The notes beneath the pieces are model-generated. The model did not search any database and had not been told where the DNA came from. It saw only the letters and a program-made list of their open reading frames with translations. Below are positions 15,512-58,945 of a stretch of 64,000 bases of DNA, piece after piece (the stretch's first letter is position 1; each line of letters starts with the position of its first letter). The translations under genes and the position numbers were made by a program. Source of the stretch: Deltaproteobacteria bacterium. GTDB lineage: Bacteria > Myxococcota_A > Polyangia > JAAYKL01. Location of the stretch: NCBI GenBank assembly GCA_016936575.1, contig JAFGXQ010000045.1, positions 70,664 to 134,663 on the forward strand, in the 5' to 3' direction.

Positions 15512-16108
15512 CTATGACGGGTCTTTGCATTGTTCAAGAATGTCTGACTTCAAACCGGGGCAACAGGTATTCGGACCGAAGTAGGAACGCCAGATTAAAT
15601 CAGCGAAGCCTTTGCCCTTGGTGATTTGTCCCATTCGCGCGCCGTTCTGCTTCAGAAGTGTTCCCTGACCGGGAATGTAAATAATCTCCACATAACTGCC
15701 CTTATTTAAATCCTTGGTGAAATACGACAAGAATACGTTAATTTTTTTCTGCAGCTCAGTGGTGTCTTTACCCTGCGGTAAATTTTTCGTGAACGTGTCT
15801 TTCAAGTTGTCAATCAACCGCTTTTTGGGAATGGTTCGCTTCATTGACAGGATCAACGCCTTTACCTCTGACTTGTAGATCACCGACCGCATGCTGCACT
15901 CGCCGCTCTCAGAGTAGGCGCTGAGGCTGTAAATATCCACGAATAGAAATTCGCGGATCGCCGTACCCAGCAATTTGAGAGATTTTCCGGCGACGGCTTT
16001 ATTTTTCGATACTGCTCCCACCGCTGGAGACGGCGGAAACACAGTAACCATAACCAACACTGCCAGCGCGACAATGTACCCTTTTCTTGTGCACCATATT
16101 GCTTTCAT
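15512..16108 (-). CDS. Chalcone-isomerase-fold (CHI-like) secreted protein
   Basis: ORF track gives 15512..16132; start preferred at MKAIW. Signal peptide. LKLLGTAIREFLFVDIYSLSAY matches the CHI-fold core strand motif (L.L.G.G.R...V.Y...Y). C-terminal GFADLIWRSYFG. Confidence 0.45.
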   Translation of the reverse strand: MKAIWCTRKGYIVALAVLVMVTVFPPSPAVGAVSKNKAVAGKSLKLLGTAIREFLFVDIYSLSAYSESGECSMRSVIYKSEVKALILSMKRTIPKKRLIDNLKDTFTKNLPQGKDTTELQKKINVFLSYFTKDLNKGSYVEIIYIPGQGTLLKQNGARMGQITKGKGFADLIWRSYFGPNTCCPGLKSDILEQCKDPS

Positions 16109-16141
16109 GCGGGTTCCTTTATCGTTCAGCAAATCCGCGAC

Positions 16142-17308
16142 CTAATCTTCGCAGATTTTCAGTTGAGAAATAAACCACGGCGCGGGGATAGAACAGTCAC
16201 CGCACATCAATGCCACAATCCAAATCCCTTCGTCGGTAATACCGGTGAACGCGTTGCCGTTGTCATCTGTTAATTCAGAAAGGGTCGCATAGGTACCCGC
16301 ATCGATGGTTTTTCGCCAGATTTCATCTGCCATGTTTTCGAGATTCAGAAAATCGGATTCCAGTGCCGAAATCGTCGTATCGGTGTAGTGTGCAACCATA
16401 ATCCCGGCAATCATCGTGGGTGCGAACTCGCGCCCCATCGCGTTGTTCGTCATGCTGCCGGTCCAATCCAAATACACATCGGCGGTGCCGGGCGGCAAAA
16501 TAATCGGCTCCAGGGAACTGAGATCAGCTTCATAATCCAGTTGCACCGAATCATTGTGAATGGTTACCGTTGAATTGTTCGCATCTTCGCGCACATTGAA
16601 CAACGCGAGCATACGCGCATTTTGACCGAGAATGATGCCCGAAGAAAGCATCACCGAATACGAAAAATCTTCAGGTGGAACATTGACAGGATCCAGCAGA
16701 CTCAGCATGGAGGCTTCATCGAGCGCGGATCCCCCGGGAGAAACCAAATCCAGATAATTGAATGTCGTTGTGCTCTGTTCAGTAAAATACACAGCCGGCG
16801 GATTCGCCAAATCCTGCATTGTCCAATCATCACTATTCAACTTTTCAACCAACTCCTCTTCGTTTGCGGACCAAATGGTCACCAGTGCCATCTGTATATC
16901 GCCCTCGCCATCAAGCGGCTGCCCCAGCATGTCCTGAGTCAGATCATCCCATTGGAACGTAATATCGGTGGAGGGAGTTACCGACGTGGCTTCAATTGTC
17001 ATTTCATTGGTGAACGTGTAATTCTGTGCATCCACCAGTGCATACGACACCACGCCATCTGTGACAGGCACAACATCGCACGAAGGTGGCGGTTCGTCTG
17101 CGTCTGTATCGCTGTCGCTGTCACTGTCTCCGTCGCTATCGACATCCGAGTCGCTGTCAGTATCACCGTCACCATCGGTATCTGTATCGCTGTCACTGTC
17201 ACCATCTGTGCCGCTCTGCTCAGTGTCTGAATTACCGCCGCACGACAACATCGCACCAACGCAGAATATCAACACAAAAACAAACAACCATATTACTGTT
17301 TTCGACAT
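16142..17308 (-). CDS. Lipoprotein with a poly(D-S/T/G) tether and a ~300-aa globular domain of unknown function
   Basis: Lipobox AMLSCGG. Tether [41 protein letters not shown] encoded by a DNA repeat at 17092..17227. Confidence 0.55.
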   Translation of the reverse strand: MSKTVIWLFVFVLIFCVGAMLSCGGNSDTEQSGTDGDSDSDTDTDGDGDTDSDSDVDSDGDSDSDSDTDADEPPPSCDVVPVTDGVVSYALVDAQNYTFTNEMTIEATSVTPSTDITFQWDDLTQDMLGQPLDGEGDIQMALVTIWSANEEELVEKLNSDDWTMQDLANPPAVYFTEQSTTTFNYLDLVSPGGSALDEASMLSLLDPVNVPPEDFSYSVMLSSGIILGQNARMLALFNVREDANNSTVTIHNDSVQLDYEADLSSLEPIILPPGTADVYLDWTGSMTNNAMGREFAPTMIAGIMVAHYTDTTISALESDFLNLENMADEIWRKTIDAGTYATLSELTDDNGNAFTGITDEGIWIVALMCGDCSIPAPWFISQLKICED

Positions 17309-17347: not shown

Positions 17348-18766
17348 CTACTGCTCCAGATCCACTGGATGGCCATATAATGTAGGCCGCCAAACCACAT
17401 ATCCGAACGCGGCTTGGCCCAAATCAATTGAACGCACAAGCTGTTCGTCAGCAGCCACCTCGTGCATCAATGCTTTATTACTATACGAAACAAGTGTGTT
17501 GCCATTCGGCAAACGCTGCACATCCCCCAAGGTAGGCGTTCCGAGACCTTCCACACGATACCGCCATATCTCCCGCAACCCGCCGGTATCGCTTGAAAAC
17601 TCGTATTCCAGTGCCTCACTGGTCAGTGTCACATCTGAAAATGAACCACCATTATTGAAAATGAGAATACTGTTGTTGAGCAAATGGTGACCATGCTGAT
17701 ATTTCCACAACCCGTCATTCTGCGTCACCCACGCAACGTCTCCACTTTTATCGAATGCGACAATTTCGCCGTGCTCGTAGTCAGATACCGTAAATAACTG
17801 TTCGGCCATGGAGTAGCGTAACGCATTGCCGTGACACCCGGTTCCCCACGTATCGGCGGTATCGTATATCAAACCGATGTTGCCGTTGGTATCCAACGAC
17901 ATCACACGCGCGCAAACCGCTGAGTTTCCAAATCCGCCTTCCGGAGTGTATTCCAACCAGGCGAACGTGTTGTCATCTACAGGGGTCAAGTCATGCGCGG
18001 CACCCGTCAGCGACGTGAACTGTTTTACTTCCTGGCCATCCATTGACACCAGTTCCACAGCACCGGCGTTTCCCTGATTATTACTCGATACTACCGCCAT
18101 CCATTTGCCGTCGTAGCTCATTCGAGCCCTGGTGCTGTCGCTAAGCGCTGTTGCAGCGTACCACCAAACGATATCGCCGTCGTTGTCTATAATGAATGCC
18201 ATAGGGTTCTGCGAAAAAGAGGCCGCAGTATACGACGCCAAAACGAAAAATCCGGGGGCGACCGACGCTGATTGCGCTACAATGATATCGGCTCGCTGAA
18301 TCACGTTCGTTACCGGTTCAGTCGTGATCACCACATCATGACTGCGATACGTTGTTCCATCAATTACCGCATTCACGCGAACATGGTAGTCAGAAGACCC
18401 CTTCATACCCAGAAGCAATGTTCTGAAATATTCCGCGGTTAACTCCACTGGTGCGGTCATTCCATACTCGCTATCCAACCCGAAGTCGATGGTCGCCGCA
18501 TCGATTTCGTTATCAACATTCGTTGACCATTCCACAATGCCCACTGTTCCGATGGCGTCACTGAGGTTCACAGACACCTCAAACGTGATGTCTCTATCTC
18601 CCGCATCAGTATTGGCATCCGTATTGTCAACTTCAGTTCCGCGGTCGCTATCGTCGGAATCGTCCGAGCGCATACCATCGCCGGCAGCTCTTTCACTGGA
18701 GCAGCTCATCCAGAATACTGCTCCACAAAGTATCGCTAGAAATGTTATGGTTATAGACGCGCGCAT
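17348..18766 (-). CDS. Beta-propeller lipoprotein, arylsulfotransferase-like (tentative), with an N-terminal Ig-like beta-sandwich; paralog of 18788..20560
   Basis: Lipobox WMSCSS. Ig/Fn3-like [72 protein letters not shown]. Propeller blades end in His-rich QHGHHLLNNSILIFNNGG. About 60% identical by eye to the neighbouring gene. Confidence 0.45.
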   Translation of the reverse strand: MRASITITFLAILCGAVFWMSCSSERAAGDGMRSDDSDDSDRGTEVDNTDANTDAGDRDITFEVSVNLSDAIGTVGIVEWSTNVDNEIDAATIDFGLDSEYGMTAPVELTAEYFRTLLLGMKGSSDYHVRVNAVIDGTTYRSHDVVITTEPVTNVIQRADIIVAQSASVAPGFFVLASYTAASFSQNPMAFIIDNDGDIVWWYAATALSDSTRARMSYDGKWMAVVSSNNQGNAGAVELVSMDGQEVKQFTSLTGAAHDLTPVDDNTFAWLEYTPEGGFGNSAVCARVMSLDTNGNIGLIYDTADTWGTGCHGNALRYSMAEQLFTVSDYEHGEIVAFDKSGDVAWVTQNDGLWKYQHGHHLLNNSILIFNNGGSFSDVTLTSEALEYEFSSDTGGLREIWRYRVEGLGTPTLGDVQRLPNGNTLVSYSNKALMHEVAADEQLVRSIDLGQAAFGYVVWRPTLYGHPVDLEQ

Positions 18767-18787: not shown

Positions 18788-20560
18788 CTACATGATAACG
18801 TCAGTCGGAGGCCCGTACAGGGTTGGACGCCACACCACATACCCGAACGCGGTCTGCCCGAAGTTGTATTCCCGCACCATCGTTTGAGAGGAATCCACCT
18901 CATGAATAATGGCCTGGTTGCTATAGGCAACAATTGTGTTGTTATTCGGCAATCGCTGAATATCACCCAGGGTGGGAGTTCCCATATTCGGTACACTGTA
19001 ACTCCATACAAGGCTCATATTTCCTCCGCCACTCATGCTGAACTCCATGCCAACACTGGTCAGATTCACATCGGTAAAAGTACCGGCATTATTGAAGATC
19101 AATAGATTGCCGTTATTCAGCAGCTGGTGCCCGTGCTGCGGTCCCCATGAACCATCATTTTGCGTCAGCCACGAGACATTACCGTTTTTGTCAAATGCAA
19201 CAATCTGATGATGTTCATAGTCGGATACGGTAAATAACCCTTCCGCCTCTGAATACCGCAAGGAATTGCCGTGACAGTTGGCCCCCCAGGTATTTGCGGT
19301 GTCATAAATCAAACTGGTGTTGCCGTTTACATCCAGCGACATCACTCTTGCACATGCGGTCGACATAATGCCGCCGGTGCTTGGTACGTACTCCAGATAT
19401 GCAAAATTGTTGTCGTCAGTCACTGTCAAATCATGCGCGGCGCCTGTCAGAGAGGTAAACTGTTTTACCTCCAACCCGTCCATCGAAATCAGTTCCACCG
19501 ACCCTGCGGTTCCATTGTTGTTGCTCGAAACTACCGCCATCCATTTGCCATCGTAGCTCATACGCGCACGAGTGCTGTCTGCCAGTGATGTGGCGGTGTG
19601 CCACCATACAATGTCGCCGTCCGTATCGGCAATAAATGCCATCGGATTCTGCATCCATGAATTTGCCGAATATGATGCGAGGACCATGAATCCTTCACCG
19701 GGTGTGGTCCCGGCATGACTATCGGTAACCGTTGCGGCCTGTATGGCATTGGTCACCGGCCCGGTCGTGACGTTGTAATCTGGGCTGGTATATGTATTAC
19801 CGTCAATCTCAATTACCACGCGCAAATGGTAGGTGCGTGAGCCTTTCATTCCGAGAAGCAGGGTTCTGAAATCTTGTGCGTGCAAGTCTACCGGCGCTTC
19901 CATTCCGTATGCGGTATCCAGACCGAATTCGATATAGGCGCTGTCGATTTGGTCATCGACATTCGTCGACCATGTGACAATCCCAACGGTGCCGATGGCG
20001 CTGCTGGTAGATGGGTTCACCGTAAATGTAACATCCGTGTCGCTGTCACTGTCAGCATCACTGTCGCTATCTGTATCGCTGTCGCTGTCGGCATCACTGT
20101 CAGTATCACTGTCACTGTCGGTATCGCTGTCGCTGTCAGTATCGCTGTCGGTATCACTGTCACTGTCGGTATCGCTGTCACTATCACTATCGCTATCGGT
20201 ATCGCTGTCGCTGTCGCTATCAGTATCACTATCGCTATCGGTATCACTATCGCTATCGGTATCACTATCGCTATCGGTATCACTATCGCTATCGGTATCA
20301 CTATCGCTATCGCCATCGCTATCAGAATCTCCGTCGCTGTCGGCATCGCCATCGCCATCGCCGTCGGAGTCACTGTCGCTATCGCCGTCAGAGTCGCCAT
20401 CACCGTCAGAATCACTATCCCCATCCGAATCACCATCCGAATCACCATCCGAATCACCATCCACATATACCACGTTACCTTCATCTGTCGTACAGCCCGC
20501 CAGTTGGATTGCCGCCAGTACCGCGCTGAGCCAAAGCACAACGAAAATTGAATATTTCAT
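18788..20560 (-). CDS. Beta-propeller lipoprotein, arylsulfotransferase-like (tentative), carrying a ~150-aa poly(D-S/G/T) tether; paralog of 17348..18766
   Basis: Lipobox LAGCTT. 150 aa of [11 protein letters not shown]...TDSDSD, then [72 protein letters not shown], then a propeller with [19 protein letters not shown]. Confidence 0.45.
20005..20458 (-). repeat. Extended coding tandem repeat (6-nt and 18-nt periodicities: gtatcactatcgctatcg, gtcgctgtcact) encoding (D-S-D-x)n
   Basis: Near-perfect reiteration visible at 20220..20320 (atcggtatcactatcgct x5). It produces overlapping spurious ORFs in all six frames (19874..20551, 19974..20621, 20017..20541). Confidence 0.85.
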
Positions 20561-20653: not shown

Positions 20654-21484
20654 TCAGGGACGCTCCAGATATTCAGTTGTAAAATATAAATCTTTTGTAT
20701 TGGGTATATTTTCTATCTTTTCGATTTTAAAAATTGATTTTCTGCCGTTTTGTTTGTTCGTCATTTCCATATACTTTGATCGATATCTTTTTTTCAACTC
20801 GTCAAGGCATTCAATATTTTTGCTTTTCAGCTCTTTCAGCAGCTCCCCTTCCAAATCAAAATACAGCGCTTTTCGAATGGTATATTCTTCTTTCGCGATC
20901 CAGATTTTCTTTTTTGAATACCCTTCGTCCTCAGCAACGTCTTCATTTTTAGGTTTAACTTCAATCAGCCAACACGAAACACCATCCACCGCTTCTTCCT
21001 TCAGTGTTCTAAACGTGTAGTCTGTCAGCGTCGGTGTGTTCATATCGGCGTATGAAAACTCGCTTCCCATAAATGCCTTGGAACGTTCTGATGTGACAAT
21101 CCGCCGGGTTTTTCTGAGTGCAGGCAGATAAATCCACATATCATCCCCTTTATTTTCATAATCGAACGCAAGCACACCTGTTCCTTTGACGTCCGCCGGC
21201 GATAAGAACCGATATACCCGTTTTTCAGTCTTACCGTTGTCGAATAGTTTGGTAACCATCGCTATCTTGCGCTCTCGCTTTTCGCCTTTTCCGTTCTGAA
21301 TAATCAGCTTCATCACCGCCTCAGAACCATCCAGTTTGCGCGACAATGCAGCGTTTTCCATAATTTCTTTTGCCGTGAGCGTCGCCCCTGCATCTGCATT
21401 CATACCAGCGGAAATCACCAATCCAACAATAACCCCCAACACAAGCATGTTCGAAAACAAATATCGTCCTACTCTCATATCCAT
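20654..21484 (-). CDS. LolA-like outer-membrane lipoprotein-sorting/carrier protein (MMPL-associated family)
   Basis: 276 aa. Signal peptide, then an unclosed beta-barrel-type sequence (VLAFDYENKGDDMWIYLPALRKTRRI, SEFSYADM) typical of the LolA_like family encoded next to MMPL exporters. Basic K/E-rich C-terminus. Confidence 0.55.
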   Translation of the reverse strand: MDMRVGRYLFSNMLVLGVIVGLVISAGMNADAGATLTAKEIMENAALSRKLDGSEAVMKLIIQNGKGEKRERKIAMVTKLFDNGKTEKRVYRFLSPADVKGTGVLAFDYENKGDDMWIYLPALRKTRRIVTSERSKAFMGSEFSYADMNTPTLTDYTFRTLKEEAVDGVSCWLIEVKPKNEDVAEDEGYSKKKIWIAKEEYTIRKALYFDLEGELLKELKSKNIECLDELKKRYRSKYMEMTNKQNGRKSIFKIEKIENIPNTKDLYFTTEYLERP

Positions 21485-21519
21485 TCTCCTTTTTATAAAA
21501 GCACTTTAAAACAAGTGGT

Positions 21520-23841
21520 CTACGCCGCGCCGGGTAATTCCTCGGTCGAATTTCCACTCTCTGTAGGCTCCAGAAATTTTGGTTTAAATACAATCACCAC
21601 TGCCGGCAGCACCACCAGCGCACCGATAAGACACGAGACAATAGAAACCACCACCAGTAACCCGAAAAACTGTACAGGAAAAAACTGCGACAGAAGCAAC
21701 ACCACAAACCCAACCACCACCGAAAAACCATTGAACAGGATTCCCCGTCCCGCCGAACGCAATGTTATTTTCACCGCATCCATCGGTTCCGCCAGCCTGC
21801 GTTCCTCGCGATAACGCCACAGAAAATGAATGGTGTAATCAATGCCAACACCAATCATAATCGATGAAAGCATCGCGGTAATCAAATTCAATTCAATGCC
21901 CCAATACCCCATCAACCCGAACAATATTGAAACAGCAATTCCCAAAGGAATCATCGAAATCAGCCCCGCAACAACCGATCGCATTACAGCGCCTACCAAC
22001 ACACCACACAGGAGAATAGACAAAAACAAACTCAACAACTGCCCCCGTACGATGTAATCCACCATGTTGGTAATCACATCCAATAAACCGCCCACAATCG
22101 TGAACGGTGCCTGAGGATGGGCATCAATGTACGCCTGTGTGTAATGGACCACATCGGTTGCCGCCCGGGTTCCACTGTCTCGTACCTGCGCAAGGATTTG
22201 CGCATTGCGATAATTGAAGTCTACGAGTTTATTGAAATCCTCAATATCGCCGCTAAGCGAGTACAGCAGAAAGTACTGCGCAATCAAATCTCGTTTGTCC
22301 GGAACTTTATCCGCAGATGCGGCGTTGTCGTTCATTACTCTGTTCATTCCGCGCACCATTGCGGCGATTGATGATGTGGTACCCACCAGTGGATGCTTTT
22401 TCAGATGCCTTTCCAGTTTATCGATTTCCTTCATCACCGCAGGGTCTTTGATGTCGCCCTTGGCAACGATCGACACATTCGCCCACCCTCCGAAATGTTC
22501 ATTCAACATATGGGTGGCGCGCCAAACCGGATCGTTTTTTTTGTAAAAACTCATCGGATTGCTGTCTACAACAATAAATGCCGCACCTGTTGCAAATGCC
22601 ACGAGCAGAACCCCGCTGATGATTAAAATTCCTCTGGATTTTTTTGACGCGACATCCCCTATGAAATTCAACAAGCGACTCATCAATGTCGCCACATCCT
22701 GAATCTTTTTTTCTTTTTTCTTCTTCGATTTCGATTTCGGCAATACTGCCAATACCGCGGGAATAAACACCAAGCTGCCCACCATTGCAAAGGCAACACC
22801 GGCAGCAGCCAGAATTCCCAGCTGCTCTGCCGGAATGATGATATGCGAGAGCAGACAAAGAAGCCCCACCATCGTGGTGATTCCGCTTGCCAGAATGGGT
22901 TGATTTAAATGCTGAACAGTCGCATGGGCAAGCTGCTTCGAATCGAGTTCCTTGTTTTCAGCACGTTCTTCCTGATATCTCGCCATAATGTGAATTCCGT
23001 AATCATTTGCCACAGCAAGAAGGATTACGGGAAGCAACACGGTGACAGTATGAATTTTCCATCCGAGGAACGCGAGCAGACCAAGCGCAAACACGATTGC
23101 CATCACTGTCATAATAAACGGCATCAACACGCCGCGTGCTTCCCGGAAACATAACAGCAAGAAAATAAACATCAGCACCAAACCGACCGGAAGAAAACGA
23201 GACATGTCCTTTCGAATATCTTTCGAAAGCTTCACGCGGGTAACCGGCATCCCACCAATTAACGCATCTCCGGGCCCTTTCGTCTGTTTAATCAGTTGCT
23301 CCAGCTGACCAACCACTTTTTCATCTGAAGCGTCCGTCGCCAGAAAACCGATAAGCACCGTGTGTTTGAAATCCTTCGATACGATGTTCCCGTACACCAA
23401 CTCATTTTCTTTTAAATCATGACGTAGCGTTTCCTTCTGCTTCTCGCTTTTCGGTATACGGCGAATCGCCTGTTCCACCACCAGCTCTCCGCATTCGGCA
23501 CTGATATGTTTGGCGGTGAAAAGAGTGATTACCCGATCGAACTCTTTGATATGTTCAAACTTTTTCGACATTTCCTTCAACCGGTGAATCACGTCGATAT
23601 CGAGAATATCATCGGCAGAAAGCACAATCATGATCATATCGGTTCCACCGAACAGCTTTTCAATTTGGGTCAGATTTTTTCGAGTGGGCAAATCCACAGG
23701 CAGTTGATTCTTCATCTCCGTATCCAACTCAATGTGCCGAAGTTGAAAAGCAGCGGCAACCGTAACTGCAACAAAAATAACGATAATCGGCCAGGGGTGT
23801 GAGGTGACAAAATTTGCAAAACTGTTCTTCCGCTGTTTCAT
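21520..23841 (-). CDS. MMPL/RND-superfamily lipid exporter (HpnN/MmpL-like, 12 TM with two periplasmic loops)
   Basis: 773 aa. The N-terminal TM segment is followed by a periplasmic domain, a six-TM block (LMFIFLLLCF...GLLAFLGWKIHTVTVLLPVILLAVANDYGIHI), and then a second periplasmic domain and a second TM block (GIAVSILFGLMGYWGIELNLITAMLSSIMIGVGIDYTIHFLWRYREE). This is the classic duplicated RND/MMPL topology. Confidence 0.8.
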   Translation of the reverse strand: MKQRKNSFANFVTSHPWPIIVIFVAVTVAAAFQLRHIELDTEMKNQLPVDLPTRKNLTQIEKLFGGTDMIMIVLSADDILDIDVIHRLKEMSKKFEHIKEFDRVITLFTAKHISAECGELVVEQAIRRIPKSEKQKETLRHDLKENELVYGNIVSKDFKHTVLIGFLATDASDEKVVGQLEQLIKQTKGPGDALIGGMPVTRVKLSKDIRKDMSRFLPVGLVLMFIFLLLCFREARGVLMPFIMTVMAIVFALGLLAFLGWKIHTVTVLLPVILLAVANDYGIHIMARYQEERAENKELDSKQLAHATVQHLNQPILASGITTMVGLLCLLSHIIIPAEQLGILAAAGVAFAMVGSLVFIPAVLAVLPKSKSKKKKEKKIQDVATLMSRLLNFIGDVASKKSRGILIISGVLLVAFATGAAFIVVDSNPMSFYKKNDPVWRATHMLNEHFGGWANVSIVAKGDIKDPAVMKEIDKLERHLKKHPLVGTTSSIAAMVRGMNRVMNDNAASADKVPDKRDLIAQYFLLYSLSGDIEDFNKLVDFNYRNAQILAQVRDSGTRAATDVVHYTQAYIDAHPQAPFTIVGGLLDVITNMVDYIVRGQLLSLFLSILLCGVLVGAVMRSVVAGLISMIPLGIAVSILFGLMGYWGIELNLITAMLSSIMIGVGIDYTIHFLWRYREERRLAEPMDAVKITLRSAGRGILFNGFSVVVGFVVLLLSQFFPVQFFGLLVVVSIVSCLIGALVVLPAVVIVFKPKFLEPTESGNSTEELPGAA

Positions 23842-23854
23842 TTTATTCTCTTCC

Positions 23855-25402
23855 CTAGAACGATAATTTCATTTCCGCGTATCCGGCGCTCTGCAACTGA
23901 TCGATCATTCCGAACAATGTATCATCAGGCCCCATGTACAATTCCGCACCTACGCTGACCGTCATATCGTCGACCAACTTGTACGCAATTTTCGGGTACA
24001 CCAACCACTCTCCGGTTGAAAAGTTCGCCATACCGAACGCCACGAGAGAAAGTGTGTCGTGCAGCGTTGTCCAGGTGATACGCAACGACGCACCGTGCTG
24101 AATCTTTTCTGTATGGCCGTGAATCAGCTGATTTTTTACCGCCAATTCCCGGTACGCCATATAACTTCGCGTTTCCTCCGGAATGAATCCATAATTCTGA
24201 ATCACGGTATCCAGATGATCCAGGTCCAAATCCATGGCCAGAGAATTGATAAATTCCTCAATGGTGCTGTCACCGTCCGGTACGGTTTCCCAATCAAGTA
24301 CATATCGCCCGATATATTGACCGATAAGCAACACATTACCGATTTCCTTGTCCGCTCCAAGTACATAGTACACATCAGGCTTCGGAACATGAATACGCTG
24401 GTCACGAATGCTCGGTTTCTCGGTGGGGTACCGAAACGCAGCCTCTCCTCGCAGTCCGAATAGAGAAGCAATCGTGGTAGAAAAATCGGCCCCCACCACG
24501 TGATGTTTGTATGCACGACGCGAAACCGTCACCGATGCCGGAACGTCTGTAAGCTGGTACGACTCGAGCGACAGACCCGGCGTTAAAGAAAAGCCGTACA
24601 AATACGAAAGCGACATCTCGAACGATGAGAAAATCAGATGCGTCTTTCCGGCAATCAATCCGTTCAACACATCAAAGTCAGGATACACCGGGTCGCTAAA
24701 AACAATAGCATCTGACAACGCCACTTTCGGCATTACCGACGGAACATATATGGGCATCCACACGACTTCCAAGCGCAATGGGTTCAAGTTCAACCGCGCA
24801 CGCAATCCGATGTTGGCCAAACGCCGGTCGTCTTCTTCAGGCGAGCGAACCCGAATATCGACAGGTGTGATACTATTTGTTGGATTGATGCCATCGGCGC
24901 GTCCCCAAACAACAATCTGTTGACCCAGCCTCAGTTCCAAGCGACTGAGGTATAGATTGACATACGCTTCACGAAGCATAATTGATGTGTCAAACTCGCC
25001 TATCGACTCTCCTCCGCCCGATCGTTCTGTAGGTTGTCCCAGATATGTTTCATCATTCAAGTACCCTCCTTTCAATCGAAGCTCGGCGAAACCGTCCGTC
25101 ATCCGTTCTTTCACCGCCCGTAACTTCAACGCCAGTTCCCCATACCCTGTTTTCAGCTCAGCCCTGGGCTGTCGCGGCATTTTTCCGACAAACACGTCGC
25201 CGCGGATGTAGCCGTTCAAATCGAATGTCAAAGGATTCTGTACGACCGTTTCGGTTGATTCCCCATTGGAATCCACAGGCGATGCAGGGGCGGTATCTGT
25301 TTCATTCCCCGAAACCGCGTCGTCGAACAATCCGGCCGAAGCGATACCGGGTATGTGCGCAAGAATAAGAAATCCAATCAGTGCCTTAATACCATGTTTC
25401 AT
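23855..25402 (-). CDS. Secreted outer-membrane beta-barrel protein (possibly DUF1302-like, a family often co-encoded with LolA-like/MMPL genes)
   Basis: Signal peptide MKHGIKALIGFLILAHIPGIASA. Alternating hydrophobic beta-strand pattern; the C-terminus ends in an aromatic (..EMKLSF). It sits 13 bp upstream of the MMPL gene. Confidence 0.45.
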   Translation of the reverse strand: MKHGIKALIGFLILAHIPGIASAGLFDDAVSGNETDTAPASPVDSNGESTETVVQNPLTFDLNGYIRGDVFVGKMPRQPRAELKTGYGELALKLRAVKERMTDGFAELRLKGGYLNDETYLGQPTERSGGGESIGEFDTSIMLREAYVNLYLSRLELRLGQQIVVWGRADGINPTNSITPVDIRVRSPEEDDRRLANIGLRARLNLNPLRLEVVWMPIYVPSVMPKVALSDAIVFSDPVYPDFDVLNGLIAGKTHLIFSSFEMSLSYLYGFSLTPGLSLESYQLTDVPASVTVSRRAYKHHVVGADFSTTIASLFGLRGEAAFRYPTEKPSIRDQRIHVPKPDVYYVLGADKEIGNVLLIGQYIGRYVLDWETVPDGDSTIEEFINSLAMDLDLDHLDTVIQNYGFIPEETRSYMAYRELAVKNQLIHGHTEKIQHGASLRITWTTLHDTLSLVAFGMANFSTGEWLVYPKIAYKLVDDMTVSVGAELYMGPDDTLFGMIDQLQSAGYAEMKLSF

Positions 25403-25403
25403 G

Positions 25404-26873
25404 TCAGAACCTGTACGATAATGCGAGCGATGAAAAGTGATAACTGCTCACATATACTCCGCTATTCGCTGTGGCTGAGGGCTGTTCAGGATAGTGGGCA
25501 TCGCAATTGTTGTTATCGGTATACGGCGCCTCACAAAAGCTTCCCGGAACTTGTTGATAAATCTGTCCGTTACTTTCGCTCATTGAAAATGGAATTTCAT
25601 ATACATAGGTGTATGACAGGGACACATCAAATCTTCCCAATATCAATGTTGTGCCCGCGCTCGCACCGAGTCGATGGGTGGCGGGAAAATCCACATAGGC
25701 AAAATTCTTTCTACTCGCTGCTGTTTCATAGAATGTACCTGCACGTATAATAAGACGATTGTCTATCACGTTCATGTCACCCCCAAACCGCACACTGAAC
25801 GTGTTTTTCCAGTGTTTCGGTATGACAATCTCTCCGACTTCAACACTGACCCCCATGACATCAGCGTACAGTCCCTTGCCGTCGATGATGTATTCATCCA
25901 TCTGGGACCAGAACTCATAGCGAACATCAAGTTCCAAGTCGTACAGATCTCTCTTTCCGCGCAAATGAATGTATCTCGCACCTGCCCGCAGCTCCATCGG
26001 AAGGGTCATTGCAAACGTCACGTTGTTATCAGGATTGTCGTTTCTGCTGAGCTCCGGCGCTTCTTCAAGAGAAAGAAACACTGGTGTGAGCGAAAGCTCG
26101 CTGTCCGCGTGTAGATAAGTAGGAATCAGCCGTCCGGAAAACGCCAGTTGAAAAGAAGGCATTGGATGCACCCAGAATCCGAGAATTGCCGAAATCCCGG
26201 TATGGTCTGCGCCTTTCACAGTAGCCGCCATATCAAACAGGCTGGAAACCGGGCTGACCTGCCCGGGAGTCGTATCTCCGTTCACAATTAATTGCAATTC
26301 CAACTGTGCCAAATCCACCCACTGCAGACTGACCCCCACACCGAACACATCCTTGTACCGCCATGCCGCACTGAGGCTGTAATACAGAATTTTTGTATCC
26401 CGCCGTGTCAACATATAGCGCTGACCACCGTCTTGCGAAAATTCCTGCGTGGAAATACCGGCCGGTGCGTAGGTTCCCAACGCAAACGCCCAGCTCTGAA
26501 GGCCGAAATCCGTCGATACGACAATCATCGGCCCGAGCAACTGCCAAGTGTGCTCGTTATTCACAGTGTCAAATGTTACGTAGTCGGGAATACCCTCGCC
26601 GGCCTCGCTCCAGTCCAGTAAAGGCGCACGCCTGAATTGTTCATGCGCGTAACCGAACCGATTACTCAGATATAGTTGCGTGCCGTGTAGAGATGTCAAT
26701 CCCGCGGGGTTATATTCAATGGCGGTGGCATCATCAGCTTTAGCAACAAAGGCACCACCTCGACCAGCGGCCACCGCGCCCTGATCTCCCACCGATATTC
26801 CAGCAGACAACACATCATTCGAAAACATGACGATGATTCCCCCCAACGCGCATAGAACAATAAAAAAAGCCAT
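25404..26873 (-). CDS. FadL/OmpP1/TodX-family outer-membrane hydrophobic-compound transporter
   Basis: ORF track gives 25404..27020, but that extension overlaps the upstream gene. Start preferred at MAFFIVLCALGG (signal peptide). The N-terminal hatch motif GAVAAGRGGAFVAKADDATAIEYNPAGLT matches the FadL consensus (G.GRAGA..AEDAS...YNPAG). The C-terminus ends in ...LSYRF. Confidence 0.6.
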   Translation of the reverse strand: MAFFIVLCALGGIIVMFSNDVLSAGISVGDQGAVAAGRGGAFVAKADDATAIEYNPAGLTSLHGTQLYLSNRFGYAHEQFRRAPLLDWSEAGEGIPDYVTFDTVNNEHTWQLLGPMIVVSTDFGLQSWAFALGTYAPAGISTQEFSQDGGQRYMLTRRDTKILYYSLSAAWRYKDVFGVGVSLQWVDLAQLELQLIVNGDTTPGQVSPVSSLFDMAATVKGADHTGISAILGFWVHPMPSFQLAFSGRLIPTYLHADSELSLTPVFLSLEEAPELSRNDNPDNNVTFAMTLPMELRAGARYIHLRGKRDLYDLELDVRYEFWSQMDEYIIDGKGLYADVMGVSVEVGEIVIPKHWKNTFSVRFGGDMNVIDNRLIIRAGTFYETAASRKNFAYVDFPATHRLGASAGTTLILGRFDVSLSYTYVYEIPFSMSESNGQIYQQVPGSFCEAPYTDNNNCDAHYPEQPSATANSGVYVSSYHFSSLALSYRF

Positions 26874-26922: not shown

Positions 26923-27918
26923 CTATACCCCTGTACAATCCGCTGACATGGTGTTTCTGAACAACGAAGTAACATCTTCAGCTTCAAAGAAAGCCGATAG
27001 TCGATAACCGATTCGCCCATCCGCTGTCACACAGCTGGGTACGATTTCAGCTGCATCCATAATTCCGCGAAAGGTCGCCCAGTTTCCATTTTGCCCACAG
27101 GCGCTGGCGCAATAGCCCGAAATCGCTTCCACTGAAAACGATTCAAACGGATCTTCCGGCGGTGTCGGAAAACCGGTTTCCGGTAAAGCGCCGTCTTTAC
27201 TGCACAATCCGGCCTTGATACACATACAAATTTGATTGACCGACTCCTGCGGCAGGCACCCTTCAAGATGCCCCGACGAAATCTGACTACAGTTTTCATT
27301 AAAACCGAACGTAACATGCAGATCATGAATCGGCGTGCTGTTCGCGGGAGACAACAACGGCGCACACATCAGAGGATCAGTCTGCGGCCCCAAATGAAAA
27401 TATAACGTCTGTGCCTCGGTGTTTCTGAATCTGCACTGATAACCGTTTGACGGAATGACATCAACGCCGATATTCAACGATTCATCCATAAAACAATACG
27501 ACTCAATCGTCGAAAAATCATCGTTTGAATATCCGGTAGAAGGCGTGCGCCAGGCCGGGCCCACACTCAATTGCAGCCTGGAGAAGGCCGCGAGTTCGTC
27601 GTCATCGGCTTCTGCAATGTCAACCACGAACAGCACATTCAGCAGGTAATTCGAAATCTCGTATTCCCACATGCTGTCGAGTGTCACGTTCAGCCTGGCC
27701 GGTTGGTCAACGGTTAAACGGGTAAATCGATAGGCCCGGCCTGTCACGTCCTCGGGCGTGCAGTTGCACTGAGTATTCTCCCCTGTCGCATCGCCTTGGA
27801 TAAAGACATCCGGAGCCGGCGGCTCAATAATGTCCACACAAGCAACAACGGTCATCATCGCAACGGCCAATGTAGTTGTCAGCCTATACGCCTGCGACGT
27901 TCTCACCGCTCTCTTCAT
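26923..27918 (-). CDS. Cysteine-containing secreted lipoprotein of unknown function
   Basis: Start preferred at MKRAVRT. Signal peptide with VVACVD lipobox-like site, about 20 Cys, no recognisable domain. Confidence 0.4.
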   Translation of the reverse strand: MKRAVRTSQAYRLTTTLAVAMMTVVACVDIIEPPAPDVFIQGDATGENTQCNCTPEDVTGRAYRFTRLTVDQPARLNVTLDSMWEYEISNYLLNVLFVVDIAEADDDELAAFSRLQLSVGPAWRTPSTGYSNDDFSTIESYCFMDESLNIGVDVIPSNGYQCRFRNTEAQTLYFHLGPQTDPLMCAPLLSPANSTPIHDLHVTFGFNENCSQISSGHLEGCLPQESVNQICMCIKAGLCSKDGALPETGFPTPPEDPFESFSVEAISGYCASACGQNGNWATFRGIMDAAEIVPSCVTADGRIGYRLSAFFEAEDVTSLFRNTMSADCTGV

Positions 27919-27955: not shown

Positions 27956-28756
27956 CTATTCTGCGCACTCCGCACTTGCTGCTACGACTTCTGTCAACTG
28001 AAGACCTGAAACGACCTGACCAGTTACATTACTTGCGGTAAGATGCATGCAGAACAACTCGCCGTCATGTTCGCATTCTTCACATGCAAATCCCATCGTC
28101 GGCGCAGTGTTGCAAATCTTTTCAGGCGTGGGGTCTGTAAACATGATTGTAAACAGTTCGTAAATATCTCTGAAATCAACTGTGGCTTTGAGGGTACCAT
28201 CGATAAATGCATCTCCTCCGTTCACCAGAGACCCTGAAATACTCAAATCATGAATGGTTGCTACTTCGAAGGCACCATTTCCTTCAATAACGGTTTCCAG
28301 ATTTGTCGGACCAATCAGAAAATCGGGATTGTCCGCAATCGTGCCGCTGCACGAGGCCGTGGCACTACACATATCCTGCACACCGTCATTCATCGTTCCC
28401 ATCGAAGTCGTCAGCGCGGATTGAGCGATTTCTACAACGGTAAAGGCAAATATCGGAACATATCCGCCCAACTCCGCCCCCACACCGGACGGTGTCCAGT
28501 TTGCAGCCGGAATTTCATCCAGGGCATAGGTATTCGCCAAAATAACACTAACGTCTTCCAGGGGCGTTGCATCTAAAGTTTCGCTGGGGGTATCTGATTC
28601 CGAATCCACATCGGTTCCGCTGTCAGATGCAGTGTCACTATCGTTCGTGTCGATATTATCAGAATCATCGGCCTCATCCCCGGTTTTGTCGCCACAACTC
28701 AGCAGTAGCAGACAAAACAACCCTACCAATCCGGACAATTTCAATTGCGTTTCCAT
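27956..28756 (-). CDS. Lipoprotein with acidic D/S/T tether; unknown globular domain
   Basis: Lipobox LLLSCGD. Tether KTGDEADDSDNIDTNDSDTASDSGTDVDSESDTPSETLD. Confidence 0.5.
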   Translation of the reverse strand: METQLKLSGLVGLFCLLLLSCGDKTGDEADDSDNIDTNDSDTASDSGTDVDSESDTPSETLDATPLEDVSVILANTYALDEIPAANWTPSGVGAELGGYVPIFAFTVVEIAQSALTTSMGTMNDGVQDMCSATASCSGTIADNPDFLIGPTNLETVIEGNGAFEVATIHDLSISGSLVNGGDAFIDGTLKATVDFRDIYELFTIMFTDPTPEKICNTAPTMGFACEECEHDGELFCMHLTASNVTGQVVSGLQLTEVVAASAECAE

Positions 28757-28789: not shown

Positions 28790-29812
28790 CTATACCCAGA
28801 TGCCTGCCACTGTGGCCATTGTGAACCCCGACGCGGCACTTCCCAGCATGAGTTTTTCATCCTTTTGCGGTTCTCTTTGAGAAAGCAGATAATCAAACAC
28901 CACACCAATCGTGGCGCTGGCGTTATTTCCGTACAAGTGATGCGTGTATACTCCCCTATCCAATTCTGCACCGATTTTCGACAGAACCTTCCGCGTCATG
29001 AATTCGCTGGGTTGATGAAATAAGTAATGCGCAACCTCGTTGGGATCCCATCCCAATTTCTTCAACACCTCCATCAGACGAGGTGCAATATACTTATGAA
29101 GTTTCATCAGTTCCGTCGATGATGAACTGAATGTGCCGTGAATCGGCACCTGGCAGAGAGACCAGTGGTTAGGCAGAGAATGCGTGTCGGTACTGACAAC
29201 CCGAACACATCCGTTTGACCAGGGATTTTTGCTCACCAGAAAACAAGCTGCTGCGTTTCCGATGGTCAAACCGGCGGCTTTGTACTGCAAATCGGTAAGT
29301 GTTTGAATATCGAACGACAAAAACTCCCGCGAGAGTTCAGCTGTACAAACCAACGCAGTCTCGTAGTCATCGTGCATATTCAGGTACGCACAGGCGACCT
29401 GCACAGCTTCCAAATGTCCCACGCACGCACTGGTTACGTCAAAAGCATGCGTCTGTGTGATGCCAAGATTCGCACACACTTCCATTGCCGTAGCAGGCTC
29501 AAAGTACTCTCTTGCCACCCCACCGAAAATCACCAAATCCACATCGTCCAAAGCAGTGCTGTTTCTCTCGAGGCAGTTAGCAGCTGCCTTTGCCGCATAC
29601 GCCGCGACCCTTGACTCAGGATTGAAATCCAGGTAGCGCACCTGAGTATTACATTTGCTCAAAATCTTTTTGGTTGCCGCTTCAATGGCTGTCCACGCAA
29701 GCTTATTTCCCTTGTAGTTTTGTTTGACCAAATCGATAATCGCAGCATTGTCATATCGTGTATCAGGTACATGAATTCCCGGCTTAGATAAATATAGTTC
29801 TGGCATCGTCAT
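28790..29812 (-). CDS. FabH-like beta-ketoacyl-ACP synthase III / condensing enzyme (KAS III family, DarB/OleA-type candidate)
   Basis: Start preferred at ATGACGATG (MTMPELYL), with AGGAAC 6 nt upstream. Catalytic triad context: Cys in DVTSACVGHLEAV, His in YLFHQPSEFMTRKVL, Asn in LYGNNASATIGVV. The C-terminus is GSAASGFTMATVAGIWV. Confidence 0.75.
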   Translation of the reverse strand: MTMPELYLSKPGIHVPDTRYDNAAIIDLVKQNYKGNKLAWTAIEAATKKILSKCNTQVRYLDFNPESRVAAYAAKAAANCLERNSTALDDVDLVIFGGVAREYFEPATAMEVCANLGITQTHAFDVTSACVGHLEAVQVACAYLNMHDDYETALVCTAELSREFLSFDIQTLTDLQYKAAGLTIGNAAACFLVSKNPWSNGCVRVVSTDTHSLPNHWSLCQVPIHGTFSSSSTELMKLHKYIAPRLMEVLKKLGWDPNEVAHYLFHQPSEFMTRKVLSKIGAELDRGVYTHHLYGNNASATIGVVFDYLLSQREPQKDEKLMLGSAASGFTMATVAGIWV

Positions 29813-30023
29813 TGAATTGTTCCTGTATGTGTTTCCAGAAATCGTCCATGCAAGACAGCTCAGCATGTAAAGCCGTCTTAATCGAAGATTTAAACAATGG
29901 TGCGAACGAAGCGAGGAAAGGGGTTGATATAAATGAACCTTTTTTACTTATTCTTTTTACAGAGGAAAATGATTGCAGCTTATTTGAAAAATTTCGTTCA
30001 TCTCAAATCATTTCAACATTCTG

Positions 30024-31103
30024 TCACAAAAAAGTCTGATAAAATTCGGCGTAGTCACATCGAATCTGCTCTTCTGTTAAGCCAAACTTTTCCAGATTGT
30101 ATGCATGTTTGCTTTCGAATGCGCGTTGTTTCTGAGCGGTGTTATCAATCACCGTTCGCAATTCAGCAGATATTTCTCCACCTACAAACGGAATGATTTC
30201 GTCCATCAGTCCGTCGAAATCCTTCATCAAACGATCAAACGTCACAACCTTGACATTGGAACGATTAATTCTTCCGCTTTCCCAATCCCGCTGAAAACGC
30301 AAACTGAGTTCGAGTAACGCGGCATACAGCCGCTTGATAAAATGCGTTCGTTTTTCCTCGGGTAAACTCCAGAACCCGAATGCGCCGTCCAAAACGCCGG
30401 TAACCAGACTGAGACCGGACGGCACAGTCGAGAGCGGATCTCTTGCCATGTATAAAATTTTCGCATCCGGAAACCGATTCAAGAAGGAAGGCAGACGAAT
30501 GCCAAGTGAAAACAGCTTCCCTACAATGCGTTCTTTCTTTTCACTCACCAACACGCGGCGCCAACATTTCTCAATCCATTTAAAGTCGCGTTTGGCCGTA
30601 TCCCGCAGGTCCGGATCAAACATATCTCTCAAGTCCTTTTTCGACCAAGATAAGAAGAATCCGTAAATGAAAAAGCCGTCAAAGTAGCGAAACATCAGCG
30701 CCGGATCATCGGTTTCCACAGATGTCAGATTCGTCTTGTGCGCAGCATGGGCGTGATGTTTTGCAGGACTGAACTTCTCCATAATCGGAAGAAACGGCTT
30801 CAGCAAAGTCTGCAGCGTTAAAGAGGGATAGATCATCTTCCACAGTCTGGAACCCGTCCCGAACCCGTTATCAGTTAAAAACCGCTGCAGGAACGTTGTT
30901 CCGCTTCGAGGATTTCCCACTATCACAATCGGACTCGCAACTCGTTTTTTACGAAGCGACGGAAAAAACAAATGGTCGAGCACCATAAATACCGATACTG
31001 TCGCATGCAGCAGAAAAATGCCTGAAAATATAAAAACAGGAGAGATTACCTTACGAAATGCGCGTATCAATGCTTTGTGCACCAGAAACATTCTTGAAAT
31101 CAT
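30024..31103 (-). CDS. PAPS-dependent sulfotransferase, membrane-anchored (N-terminal TM helix)
   Basis: 5'-PSB motif IVGNPRSGTTFLQRFL, 3'-PB motif ILYMARDPLSTVPS. N-terminal hydrophobic helix ISPVFIFSGIFLLHATVSVFMVL. Confidence 0.7.
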   Translation of the reverse strand: MISRMFLVHKALIRAFRKVISPVFIFSGIFLLHATVSVFMVLDHLFFPSLRKKRVASPIVIVGNPRSGTTFLQRFLTDNGFGTGSRLWKMIYPSLTLQTLLKPFLPIMEKFSPAKHHAHAAHKTNLTSVETDDPALMFRYFDGFFIYGFFLSWSKKDLRDMFDPDLRDTAKRDFKWIEKCWRRVLVSEKKERIVGKLFSLGIRLPSFLNRFPDAKILYMARDPLSTVPSGLSLVTGVLDGAFGFWSLPEEKRTHFIKRLYAALLELSLRFQRDWESGRINRSNVKVVTFDRLMKDFDGLMDEIIPFVGGEISAELRTVIDNTAQKQRAFESKHAYNLEKFGLTEEQIRCDYAEFYQTFL

Positions 31104-40364: not shown

Positions 40365-41369
40365 TTACTCGGTTTTCCATGCCGCGAGAATTGTTTGAAT
40401 AGCCTCGACGAGGGTTGTTTTGCCGGAAAGAAAAGCATCTTCTGTAGCGGAAAGGGCTTGCTTGACATTGTCATCGGCAAAAAAACGGGCCTGCAGTTGC
40501 GAGGCCAGACGCAACCGCAGCCATTGGCGTTGCTGTTTTTGACGGCGGTCAGTGAATGTGCCGCGGGATGTAGTGGCTTCAACGAACTGCTGCACAACTG
40601 CCCATGCGGTTTCCATACCGCTATGTTCAAGCGCTGAGCACACATCCACCGACGTTTTCCAACCCGACGTCGCAGCGCGCATAAACTCAATGGATTGCTG
40701 ATATTCGTTACGTGCGGCATCGGCTGACATGCGGTTTTCGCCGTCGGCTTTGTTGATTAGAATGTGATCAGCCAATTCCATAATTCCGCGCTTCATTCCC
40801 TGCAGATTGTCTCCCGCATTCGGTAACATAAGCAGTAAAAAGAAATCCACCAAATCCCGCACGGTCACTTCGTTCTGCCCAACCCCTACCGTCTCTACCA
40901 GAACCACATCAAACCCCGCAGCCTCACACAATAAAATGGTCTCTGTGGTGTTGGCCGCCACTCCCCCCAATGCACCCTTTGATGGAACCGGGCGAATAAA
41001 ACAATCCCGATTCCGCACCAGTGTTTCCATACGCGTCTTATCACCGAGAATTGAACCGCCCGAAATCGAGCTGCTTGGGTCTACCGCAATCACGGCTACT
41101 TTTTTTCCAATCGACAAGAGGTAACTACCGAATGCTTCGATAAACGTGCTCTTTCCCACTCCAGGTACACCGGTGATTCCAATGCGCACAGTGTTTCGCG
41201 GCACAGACACAAATCGACCCAACAATTCACCCGCCAGCTCCATGTGGTCCAGATGACTGCTTTCCACCAATGTGATGGCGCGCCCCAGCGCTGTGCGATC
41301 GCCTTCAAGAACGCCTTGCACCAGCTGTTCAATAGATAACGACGGTCGCTTCGCAGAGGGGAAGGTCAT
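40365..41369 (-). CDS. meaB: Methylmalonyl-CoA mutase-associated GTPase MeaB/ArgK (G3E family)
   Basis: P-loop GITGVPGVGKSTFIEA, ILINKADGEN (NKxD), and strong whole-length resemblance to MeaB. Start preferred at MTFPSAKRP, 4 nt after the mutB stop. Confidence 0.85.
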   Translation of the reverse strand: MTFPSAKRPSLSIEQLVQGVLEGDRTALGRAITLVESSHLDHMELAGELLGRFVSVPRNTVRIGITGVPGVGKSTFIEAFGSYLLSIGKKVAVIAVDPSSSISGGSILGDKTRMETLVRNRDCFIRPVPSKGALGGVAANTTETILLCEAAGFDVVLVETVGVGQNEVTVRDLVDFFLLLMLPNAGDNLQGMKRGIMELADHILINKADGENRMSADAARNEYQQSIEFMRAATSGWKTSVDVCSALEHSGMETAWAVVQQFVEATTSRGTFTDRRQKQQRQWLRLRLASQLQARFFADDNVKQALSATEDAFLSGKTTLVEAIQTILAAWKTE

Positions 41370-41373
41370 CGGC

Positions 41374-53150: not shown

Positions 53151-53154
53151 CAAG

Positions 53155-58924: not shown

Positions 58925-58945
58925 CTGCGTTGTCCAACCATCCAA

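Follow-up and report, generated by a model that had tools for sequence, protein, structure and literature searches.

A conserved gene cluster of Polyangia-type myxobacteria combining an HAE3-type pump, a LolA3-type carrier and two outer-membrane barrels with putative lipid-forming and sulfating enzymes

Transport genes

The window analysed here is a stretch of 64,000 nucleotides from a Deltaproteobacteria bacterium of the class Polyangia (contig JAFGXQ010000045.1). Four adjacent minus-strand open reading frames (ORFs) encode a FadL-like outer-membrane barrel, a second barrel, an MMPL-type inner-membrane transporter and a LolA-like protein. An earlier note on this DNA, made from the letters alone, had described these genes as contiguous with gaps of 1 to 35 bp; the same coordinates and gaps (1, 13 and 35 bp) were recovered, and all four family labels hold in Pfam and NCBIfam matches. 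The linkage of the four genes goes far beyond chance and is kept across dozens of genomes and metagenome contigs. They occupy positions 5 to 8 in a run of twelve genes on the same strand, which extends from 31103 down to 15512 with gaps of 1-157 bp in the order sulfotransferase, thiolase, unk266, unk331, FadL-like, barrel, MMPL, LolA-like, two ASST-like (arylsulfate sulfotransferase-like) genes, unk388 and a chalcone-isomerase-like gene. The set was previously thought to be a compact and possibly complete module, but it is not self-contained and sits mid-way in this operon-like run. The transport genes are:

20654..21484, minus strand: soluble periplasmic LolA3-type (PF17131) carrier, 276 aa
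21520..23841, minus strand: HAE3-type RND/MMPL inner-membrane transporter, 773 aa (MMPL and TIGR00921)
23855..25402, minus strand: distant DUF1302-family (PF06980) outer-membrane barrel, 515 aa
25404..26873, minus strand: FadL/TodX-family outer-membrane barrel with hatch motif, 489 aa (the open frame reaches 27020)

The pump matches Pfam MMPL (1.9e-45), with two MMPL stretches and SSD matches, and its best NCBIfam model is HAE3 (TIGR00921; 3.9e-95), where its 319 bits do not reach the curated cutoff of 352. HAE1 models gave only 18-21 bits and SecDF 31 bits, which identifies the protein as HAE3 and neither HAE1 nor a heavy-metal pump. The earlier note had likened it to HpnN/MmpL-like exporters, and its nearest solved relatives are indeed HpnN and MmpL4/5, with MmpL3 also among its PDB neighbours. 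The HpnN equivalog level is reached neither for TIGR03480 (3.5e-39, 134 bits against a cutoff of 752) nor for NF052374 (83 bits against 1100). Asp-Tyr pairs can be read from the protein sequence at 280-281 (NDYGIH, 279-284) and 668-669 (IDYTIH, 667-672), and we take these to correspond to the proton relay of MmpL3.

The carrier matches Pfam LolA_like (PF17131; 8.9e-55, 185.6 bits) and, weakly, DUF1329 (38.9 bits, residues 83-131), and has no Pfam match to the LolA family proper, so that it is not a bona fide LolA. The closest PDB relative is Porphyromonas gingivalis LolA3 (9tp6, 2e-32), followed by 3bk5 and 4z48. A signal peptide is present and a lipobox Cys is not. Homologues are 55-81% identical, making the carrier better conserved than the barrels. 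A fusion of MMPL and LolA was looked for among the top 120 homologues and none was found, all being 226-315 aa long. LolA3 of P. gingivalis lacks the conserved LolA Arg and LolB Leu features and binds LolB weakly (PMC13103446). Flavobacterium johnsoniae lacking lolA3 shows neither a gliding defect nor one in type IX secretion, and even the combined deletion of every LolA and LolB homologue leaves surface lipoproteins able to localise (PMC11885536). Because no lipoprotein-sorting role has been seen for Bacteroidota LolA3, and its LolB binding is weak (PMC11885536, PMC13103446), the LolA3-type protein fits a carrier of lipid rather than of lipoproteins.

The second barrel is a distant member of DUF1302 (PF06980; 2e-7, 30.9 bits against a gathering score of 23.2), matching over residues 108-188 only, and the gathering score is passed by 28/28 aligned members of its group (best 8.8e-12). 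It has a signal peptide and ends in ...KLSF. An AlphaFold2 model (pLDDT 80) predicts approximately 18-20 strands, with residues 379-427 forming a helical insert. When this model was compared with the PDB using Foldseek, only generic 16-18-strand porins were recovered, including OccAB1, with query-normalised TM values of 0.34-0.49; published comparisons likened DUF1302 to solved porins at TM 0.54-0.55 (PMC13499233). The predicted structure is as expected for a large barrel of about 18 strands that only loosely resembles OccAB/AlgE. A profile search against PDB sequences gave no match at E <= 10. The protein is not an unrelated porin, a possibility raised with the earlier description; it belongs to DUF1302, the source of the barrels found together with HAE3 pumps and LolA-like proteins in systems of the AmeABCD type. 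A conserved AGLFxxAVxG motif lies at residues 23-32 (window 25307-25336), right behind the predicted signal-peptide cleavage site, with F26 invariant and L25 nearly so in 28 homologues, and is followed by a disordered stretch of about 25 residues (pLDDT below 50). This segment could be a docking or plug peptide.

The FadL-like protein matches Pfam Toluene_X/FadL (PF03349; 9.8e-18, 64.3 bits against a cutoff of 29.7) over residues 16-424, corresponding to profile positions 3-384 of 421, and gave no match to PDB sequences at E <= 1. It carries a signal peptide and ends in ...SYRF, both barrels thus having a signal peptide at the start and an aromatic residue at the end. E. coli FadL (taken from the K-12 genome for alignment), TodX and TbuX belong to the same Pfam family and share the hatch, G-x-G-R...ADD...NPA; E. 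coli FadL is only 24% identical to the window protein. The N-terminal hatch had been reported as kept, and it is intact. The string GRGGAFVAKADDATAIEYNPAG (residues 37-58, window 26700..26765) aligns to E. coli FadL with the G, R, A, DD and NPA (N55, P56 and A57) invariant. The hatch is near-invariant across 43 homologues, with G37, R38, G40, A41, D48, A51, N55 and P56 the same in all and the A of NPA kept in 42/43. The window protein also has a C-terminal insert with a Cys, YQQVPGSxCxxPY, that E. coli FadL lacks.

The FadL-like gene is preceded directly by a lipoprotein gene in every locus and is found within a putative export cluster, whereas E. coli FadL, Pseudomonas TodX and Ralstonia TbuX import their substrates. 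In the window, this position is taken by unk331, and the unk331-FadL pair is kept in six further loci (L003, L004, L006, L085, L089 and L091). In other genomes the position is held by unk388p, a lipoprotein unrelated to unk331. Two metagenome contigs with long flanks, L089 and L091, have the unk331-FadL pair alone, the barrel, pump, carrier and thiolase not being nearby, and the lipoprotein-FadL pair may for this reason be a separable unit.

Conservation of the cluster

A profile scan with the second barrel over one genome per GTDB species recovered 369 relatives. The best 80 loci, nearly all from Myxococcota/Polyangia metagenome-assembled genomes (MAGs), were analysed, and gene families were counted within 10 kb of the barrel in the 45 loci whose two flanks were each 7 kb or longer. 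LolA-like genes were present in 37 of these, MMPL in 36, FadL-like genes and the KAS III-type thiolase (KAS3) in 31 each, unk388 in 35, ASST-like genes in 29 and the sulfotransferase in 22. A scan of metagenome contigs with the FadL subfamily recovered 392 relatives; around FadL, again within 10 kb and in the 15 loci whose two flanks were each 5 kb or longer, the barrel was found in 13, LolA-like in 12, MMPL in 10, KAS3 in 12, ASST in 13 and unk388 in 13. The co-occurrence check proposed in the earlier note, run from the second barrel and from FadL, is therefore strongly positive both ways.

In 9/45 loci, the barrel, MMPL and LolA-like genes occur alone, often with a gene for a TetR-family regulator between the barrel and the pump. 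This regulator (L016, 11419-12117, and about 10 other loci) belongs to the minimal-trio versions and is absent from the window. The minimal trio is also present in Ignavibacteriaceae, Desulfobacteraceae and Fibrobacteria MAGs, and shorter contigs from Latescibacteria and Aminicenantes carry at least the barrel and MMPL. As nine loci, other phyla included, carry the trio alone, the trio is the conserved core and FadL is a lineage-specific addition. The set of four is evolutionarily linked, but its barrel, LolA-like and HAE3 trio had already been described genetically, and the tight four-gene order, though present in the window, is elsewhere limited to a few close relatives (L003-L006), the only loci with the strict order FadL-barrel-MMPL-LolA.

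The usual layout is composed of four units, namely CysNC-DHHA1-sulfotransferase, LolA-barrel-KAS3, lipoprotein(unk388p)-FadL-MMPL' and unk388a-ASST, with the second and third units divergent. Two HAE3 paralogue types are found across the loci (phmmer E ~1e-70 between types). Where the barrel is directly followed by the LolA-like gene, the pump is of the MMPL' type (e.g. L046, 2951-5578) and is encoded beside FadL. A pump right after the barrel, as in the window (21520-23841), is of the core type, which is present in other phyla too. It seems that one pump type has been exchanged for the other within the cluster.

All-against-all clustering of the locus ORFs gave no further conserved family beyond TetR, CysNC and DHHA1, and the other recurrent ORFs, which have no Pfam match, probably represent the shadow ORFs expected in high-GC genomes. 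According to ORF clustering and Pfam, the genes conserved in the cluster loci include none for an oxygenase, beta-oxidation, a sulfatase or any other catabolic function.

Remaining genes of the run

The transport genes are flanked in the run by the following genes:

15512..16132, minus strand: Chalcone_3 (PF16036, 1.4e-21) secreted protein, chalcone-isomerase-like, last in the run
16142..17308, minus strand: unk388, beta-sandwich lipoprotein without known relatives (lipobox, acidic linker, no Pfam match)
17348..18766, minus strand: ASST-like beta-propeller lipoprotein, tandem paralogue (Arylsulfotrans 1.4e-12; lipobox)
18788..20560, minus strand: ASST-like beta-propeller lipoprotein (ASST590) with an Asp/Ser/Thr repeat linker of about 150 aa (Arylsulfotrans 1.7e-9, Arylsulfotran_2)
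26923..27918, minus strand: unk331, Cys-rich lipoprotein of unassigned function, 331 aa, directly upstream of FadL (ORF open to 27975)
27956..28756, minus strand: unk266, lipoprotein of unassigned function with an acidic Asp/Ser/Thr linker, 266 aa (lipobox LLSC)
28790..29866, minus strand: OleA-like KAS III-fold thiolase, 358 aa (Pfam ACP_syn_III_C, ACP_syn_III)
30024..31103, minus strand: membrane-anchored sulfotransferase of the 3'-phosphoadenosine 5'-phosphosulfate (PAPS) type, 359 aa (Pfam Sulfotransfer_3 6.4e-14, Sulfotransfer_1)

The closest solved structure to the thiolase is OleA of Xanthomonas campestris (3row/4ku3, 3.5e-15, versus 1e-8 to 1e-11 for FabH), and these PDB codes are confirmed as OleA (PMC8180931). 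In the alignment to 3row, Glu117, Cys143, His285 and Asn315 of OleA correspond to E123, C148, H284 and N314, all four of which are invariant in 47-49 homologues. No OleB/C/D-like family was detected among the conserved neighbours of the thiolase by locus ORF clustering. A gene for a steroid 5-alpha-reductase-like membrane protein lies beside one for a 3-beta-HSD/epimerase-family reductase at window 52395-54135, 22 kb from the thiolase gene. OleD, the reductase that acts after OleA, belongs to a 3-beta-HSD-like family.

The sulfotransferase has an N-terminal hydrophobic segment, and GNPRSGTT (63-70) and ARDP (220-223), read from the sequence, resemble the 5'-phosphosulfate-binding (5'-PSB) and 3'-phosphate-binding (3'-PB) motifs. 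In L046, genes for CysNC (APS kinase domain, 1.9e-68) and a DHHA1 protein adjoin the sulfotransferase gene. CysNC homologues are found in 30/80 loci, 27 of them at E below 1e-60, and DHHA1 in 20/80; the DHHA1 protein is a candidate pAp (3'-phosphoadenosine 5'-phosphate) phosphatase. No CysNC homologue is encoded anywhere in the 64-kb window. Sulfate-assimilation genes (PAPS reductase, flavoprotein/ferredoxin oxidoreductase and sulfite reductase) lie at window 58196-62276, approximately 27 kb from the cluster. The minus-strand genes at window 40365-45694, for two proteins of the methylmalonyl-CoA mutase family and the MeaB GTPase, belong to ordinary metabolism and have no relation to the cluster.

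Six neighbours of the transport genes are lipoproteins in which a lipobox is followed by a long Asp/Ser/Thr linker. The lipobox is VVAC in unk331 and LAGC in ASST590. Neither unk331 nor unk266 has a Pfam or NCBIfam match, and unk266 homologues are present in 15/80 loci. The two ASST-like lipoproteins of the window share 66% identity, and the tandem paralogue (17348..18766) gave no match to PDB sequences at E <= 1. An AlphaFold2 model of unk388, built from a 10-sequence alignment, predicts a two-domain, beta-rich fold with a pLDDT of 90; Foldseek returned nothing usable from the PDB for it, the best hits being Ig-like or TEAD-like sandwiches (E 8e-3, TM ~0.2), and unk388 may represent a new fold or family. 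Across the 35/45 loci that carry unk388 there are two paralogue types, one always beside ASST-like genes and the other always directly upstream of FadL. Paralogy of unk331 and unk388 was considered and ruled out, as there is no BLAST similarity between them.

At 20033-20462, 32467-33067 and 17114-17203 the DNA carries imperfect tandem repeats, 6-90 bp in period, which encode the Asp/Ser/Thr/Gly acidic linkers directly behind the lipobox of ASST590, unk555 and unk388. Matches of the linker lipoproteins to staphylococcal SD-repeat adhesins were rejected as spurious, since they are caused by the repeats. The same genome encodes acidic-linker lipoproteins outside the cluster as well. A further lipoprotein of 821 aa, at window 47202-49667, has no Pfam match and is composed almost entirely of Glu, Lys, Arg and Ala over its central ~450 residues, a stretch of the charged single-helix or coiled-coil type; it accounts for the outlying AT skew that the composition profile shows at 48-50 kb.

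The Chalcone_3 protein has an N-terminal hydrophobic segment and was found in 7/80 loci. A terminator-like hairpin is located past its gene, at 15426-15410.

Comparison with known systems and proposed function

The barrel-pump-carrier trio is known already, as a variant of the AmeABCD or DUF1302/DUF1329/RND systems. AmeABCD from Castellaniella defragrans includes an HAE3 pump co-expressed with a DUF1302 barrel and a LolA-like protein; its genes are located in an island for monoterpene catabolism, deletion mutants tolerate monoterpenes less well and show reduced dye efflux, and its authors proposed a trans-envelope path for hydrophobic molecules (PMC6394551). Genes for DUF1302, DUF1329, BNR (COG4447) and RND (COG1033) proteins are cofit in Shewanella, Kangiella and Pseudomonas (bioRxiv 10.1101/072470). 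The same four-gene system is represented by PP_0765/0766/2018/2019 of Pseudomonas putida, for which complexes have been predicted (PMC10866462; PMC13499233), and PP_0765/0766 are required for growth on Tween 20 (PMC10866462). In AmeABCD and PP_0765/0766/2018/2019, as in the window, an HAE3 pump, a LolA-superfamily protein and a DUF1302 barrel are encoded together. However, the window carrier is of the short PF17131 type (276 aa), whereas the AmeABCD-type partner is a DUF1329 protein of about 450 aa, and the DUF1302 match of the window barrel is weak and covers a short stretch. The COG4447/BNR (Ycf48-like) propeller of the AmeABCD type has no counterpart, with no BNR or PSII_BNR match in window ORFs between 15.5 and 33 kb, and the only propeller-like neighbours of the pump are ASST-like. 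Relative to AmeABCD, the window cluster adds the FadL-type barrel, OleA-like thiolase, sulfotransferase and ASST-like lipoproteins, and its gene context is anabolic whereas that of the AmeABCD type is catabolic.

Other precedents place similar parts next to lipid biosynthesis. Aryl-polyene clusters include RND and LolA-like genes (ApeL/ApeM/ApeN) proposed to carry the lipid product to the outer membrane (PMC8253772). Both these clusters and the flexirubin LolA2/LolB2 clusters resemble the window in having RND/MMPL and LolA-like genes inside a lipid biosynthetic cluster (PMC8253772; PMC11885536), but the Ape system has a LolB-like DUF3261 lipoprotein in place of the barrels. Homology was rejected: the match between ApeM and the window MMPL is confined to a local transmembrane motif (E 2e-5), and no similarity was seen between ApeL and the LolA-like protein. 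On these sequence comparisons, ApeL/ApeM is an analogue and not a homologue of the window pair. The sulfolipid-1 locus of Mycobacterium tuberculosis (Stf0, Pks2, PapA1/2, Chp1, MmpL8 and Sap) likewise groups a sulfotransferase, chain-forming enzymes and an MmpL exporter (PMC3318749). However, the envelope is different, there is no LolA-like carrier or beta-barrel, and a polyketide synthase stands where the window has an OleA-like thiolase, so that this comparison can be used as an analogy only. In the alkane degrader Thalassolituus oleivorans, TOL_3187/TOL_3188 comprise an MMPL-LolA_like fusion beside a porin-like gene and are induced on C28 alkane, as is a FadL homologue (PMC6304351); the likeness is by published domain content, and the domains fused there are separate in the window. 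Searches of the literature recovered no cluster with a sulfotransferase, MMPL and LolA, nor one with OleA and a sulfotransferase, only mycobacterial or biofuel papers being returned. Neither the PF17131 carrier, nor the added FadL-type barrel, nor the link to thiolase, sulfotransferase and PAPS supply was found in the literature searched.

The explanation we favour, at about even confidence, is that the four genes are the envelope-transport part of a Polyangia-type cluster for a sulfated amphiphilic lipid, which would be synthesised and then moved into the outer membrane or past it. It is suggested by the families and motifs, the close spacing of the twelve same-strand genes, the co-occurrence data, the PAPS supply genes, the invariant OleA tetrad, the precedents of AmeABCD, Ape and T. 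oleivorans and the missing lipoprotein-sorting role of Bacteroidota LolA3, and no catabolic enzymes are found in the conserved gene set. From the observed family identities, predicted targeting signals, conserved motifs and synteny, we infer the substrate, the direction of transport (export), the protein contacts and an outward-working role for FadL as follows. The OleA-like thiolase, which retains its catalytic residues, would join acyl chains in the cytoplasm, and the membrane-anchored PAPS-dependent sulfotransferase, with CysNC and DHH/DHHA1 phosphatase genes adjoining in many relatives, would sulfate the product or a derivative of it. The HAE3 pump would be expected, from family behaviour and its conserved Asp-Tyr pairs, to lift the lipid from the inner membrane using the proton gradient. 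The soluble LolA3-type protein would then shield it across the periplasm and the DUF1302-type barrel receive it at the outer membrane, while the FadL-type barrel, paired with the upstream lipoprotein, could let it pass through a lateral gate to the outer leaflet. Lipoproteins of the surface or periplasm that the cluster also encodes (ASST-like, unk388, unk266 and unk331) may act on or bind the product outside the cytoplasm.

Several points weigh against this explanation. Every relative recovered comes from a MAG or a metagenome contig. The best NCBIfam model for the thiolase, PRK09258, gave 118 bits, far under the OleA-type cutoff of 285, and conversion of an OleA-type beta-keto acid to a sulfatable hydroxyl needs a reductase, none of which is conserved in the cluster. 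The solved relatives of the sulfotransferase are weak (2e-6; 2z6v and 2zq5, which we take to be mycobacterial Stf enzymes), and the cluster in the window itself is without CysNC and DHHA1. To our knowledge, all characterised FadL-family proteins are importers. The minimal trio with TetR resembles an efflux or tolerance device and not a biosynthetic exporter, and the characterised homologous systems are tied to growth on hydrophobic substrates (PMC6394551, PMC10866462, PMC6304351).

The main rival is a system for the uptake and tolerance of a hydrophobic or sulfated aromatic compound from outside the cell. Here FadL would import the compound, the ASST-like lipoproteins would add sulfate to or take it from molecules outside the cytoplasm, the LolA-like protein would act as a periplasmic chaperone, and the HAE3 pump and DUF1302 barrel would expel any excess, the role suggested for AmeABCD. 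ASST enzymes act on external phenolic sulfates, and ASST-like Pfam matches are present in the cluster; the TetR regulator of the minimal trio is typical of efflux operons. FadL-family proteins are known as importers, and C28 alkane induces TOL_3187/3188 together with a FadL homologue (PMC6304351). Further support comes from the location of AmeABCD in a monoterpene catabolic island and the loss of monoterpene tolerance on its deletion (PMC6394551), and from the need for PP_0765/0766 during growth on Tween 20 (PMC10866462). However, the conserved condensing enzyme and PAPS-type sulfotransferase, often accompanied by genes for PAPS synthesis and pAp removal, are anabolic, and no catabolic gene (oxygenase, beta-oxidation or sulfatase) is conserved, and we regard such a system as unlikely, though a serious contender.

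It is considerably harder to accept that the genes provide a sorting route reserved for the six acidic-linker lipoproteins encoded nearby, with the RND pump extracting them, the LolA-like protein carrying their acyl chains and the barrels inserting or exposing them. The LolA fold, the six co-encoded lipoproteins with a lipobox and long Asp/Ser/Thr linker, and the lipoprotein gene always directly upstream of FadL are consistent with this. However, extraction of lipoproteins is known to use the LolCDE ABC transporter and not RND pumps, the trio occurs in other phyla without these lipoproteins, and acidic-linker lipoproteins are also encoded elsewhere in the genome. The missing LolA arginine and LolB leucine features and weak LolB binding of P. 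gingivalis LolA3 (PMC13103446), and the harmless lolA3 deletion and LolA/LolB-independent surface lipoproteins of F. johnsoniae (PMC11885536), likewise make this route very improbable. Promoter and terminator scans of 14.5-33.5 kb, which gave counts not clearly above those in shuffled sequence, would be in keeping with a mere juxtaposition of unrelated envelope genes. Chance adjacency is nevertheless excluded for practical purposes because it is contradicted by the synteny data, the same gene set recurring around both barrels in dozens of genomes and contigs despite shuffled order and strand, and the gaps of 1-35 bp also argue against it.

Should the cluster make and export a sulfated lipid, a bolder and rather doubtful extension would be that Polyangia-type myxobacteria produce a new class of outer-membrane sulfolipid, in which a head-to-head condensed (mycolate-like 2-alkyl-3-oxy) fatty acid is sulfated from PAPS and delivered by an RND pump, a LolA3 carrier and two barrels, with a FadL-family channel working outward. 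If true, Gram-negative bacteria would have their own counterpart of the sulfolipid/MmpL pathway of mycobacteria, and both the orphan LolA3 (PF17131) family and a distant branch of DUF1302 would gain their first assigned function.

DUF1302 barrels, PF17131/LolA3 proteins and HAE3 pumps are widespread and have no defined substrate, and for LolA3 a structure has been solved but there is no phenotype. In the cluster these families are joined by a thiolase, a sulfotransferase and PAPS supply, which make up a plausible cargo pathway, a link that spans several hundred myxobacterial genomes and metagenome contigs, and the added FadL-type barrel would be used in an unusual direction. It thus offers a concrete system in which to ask what these families carry, whether LolA3 is a lipid or a lipoprotein chaperone, whether FadL-type barrels can export, and whether myxobacteria display a surface sulfolipid that has gone unrecognised.

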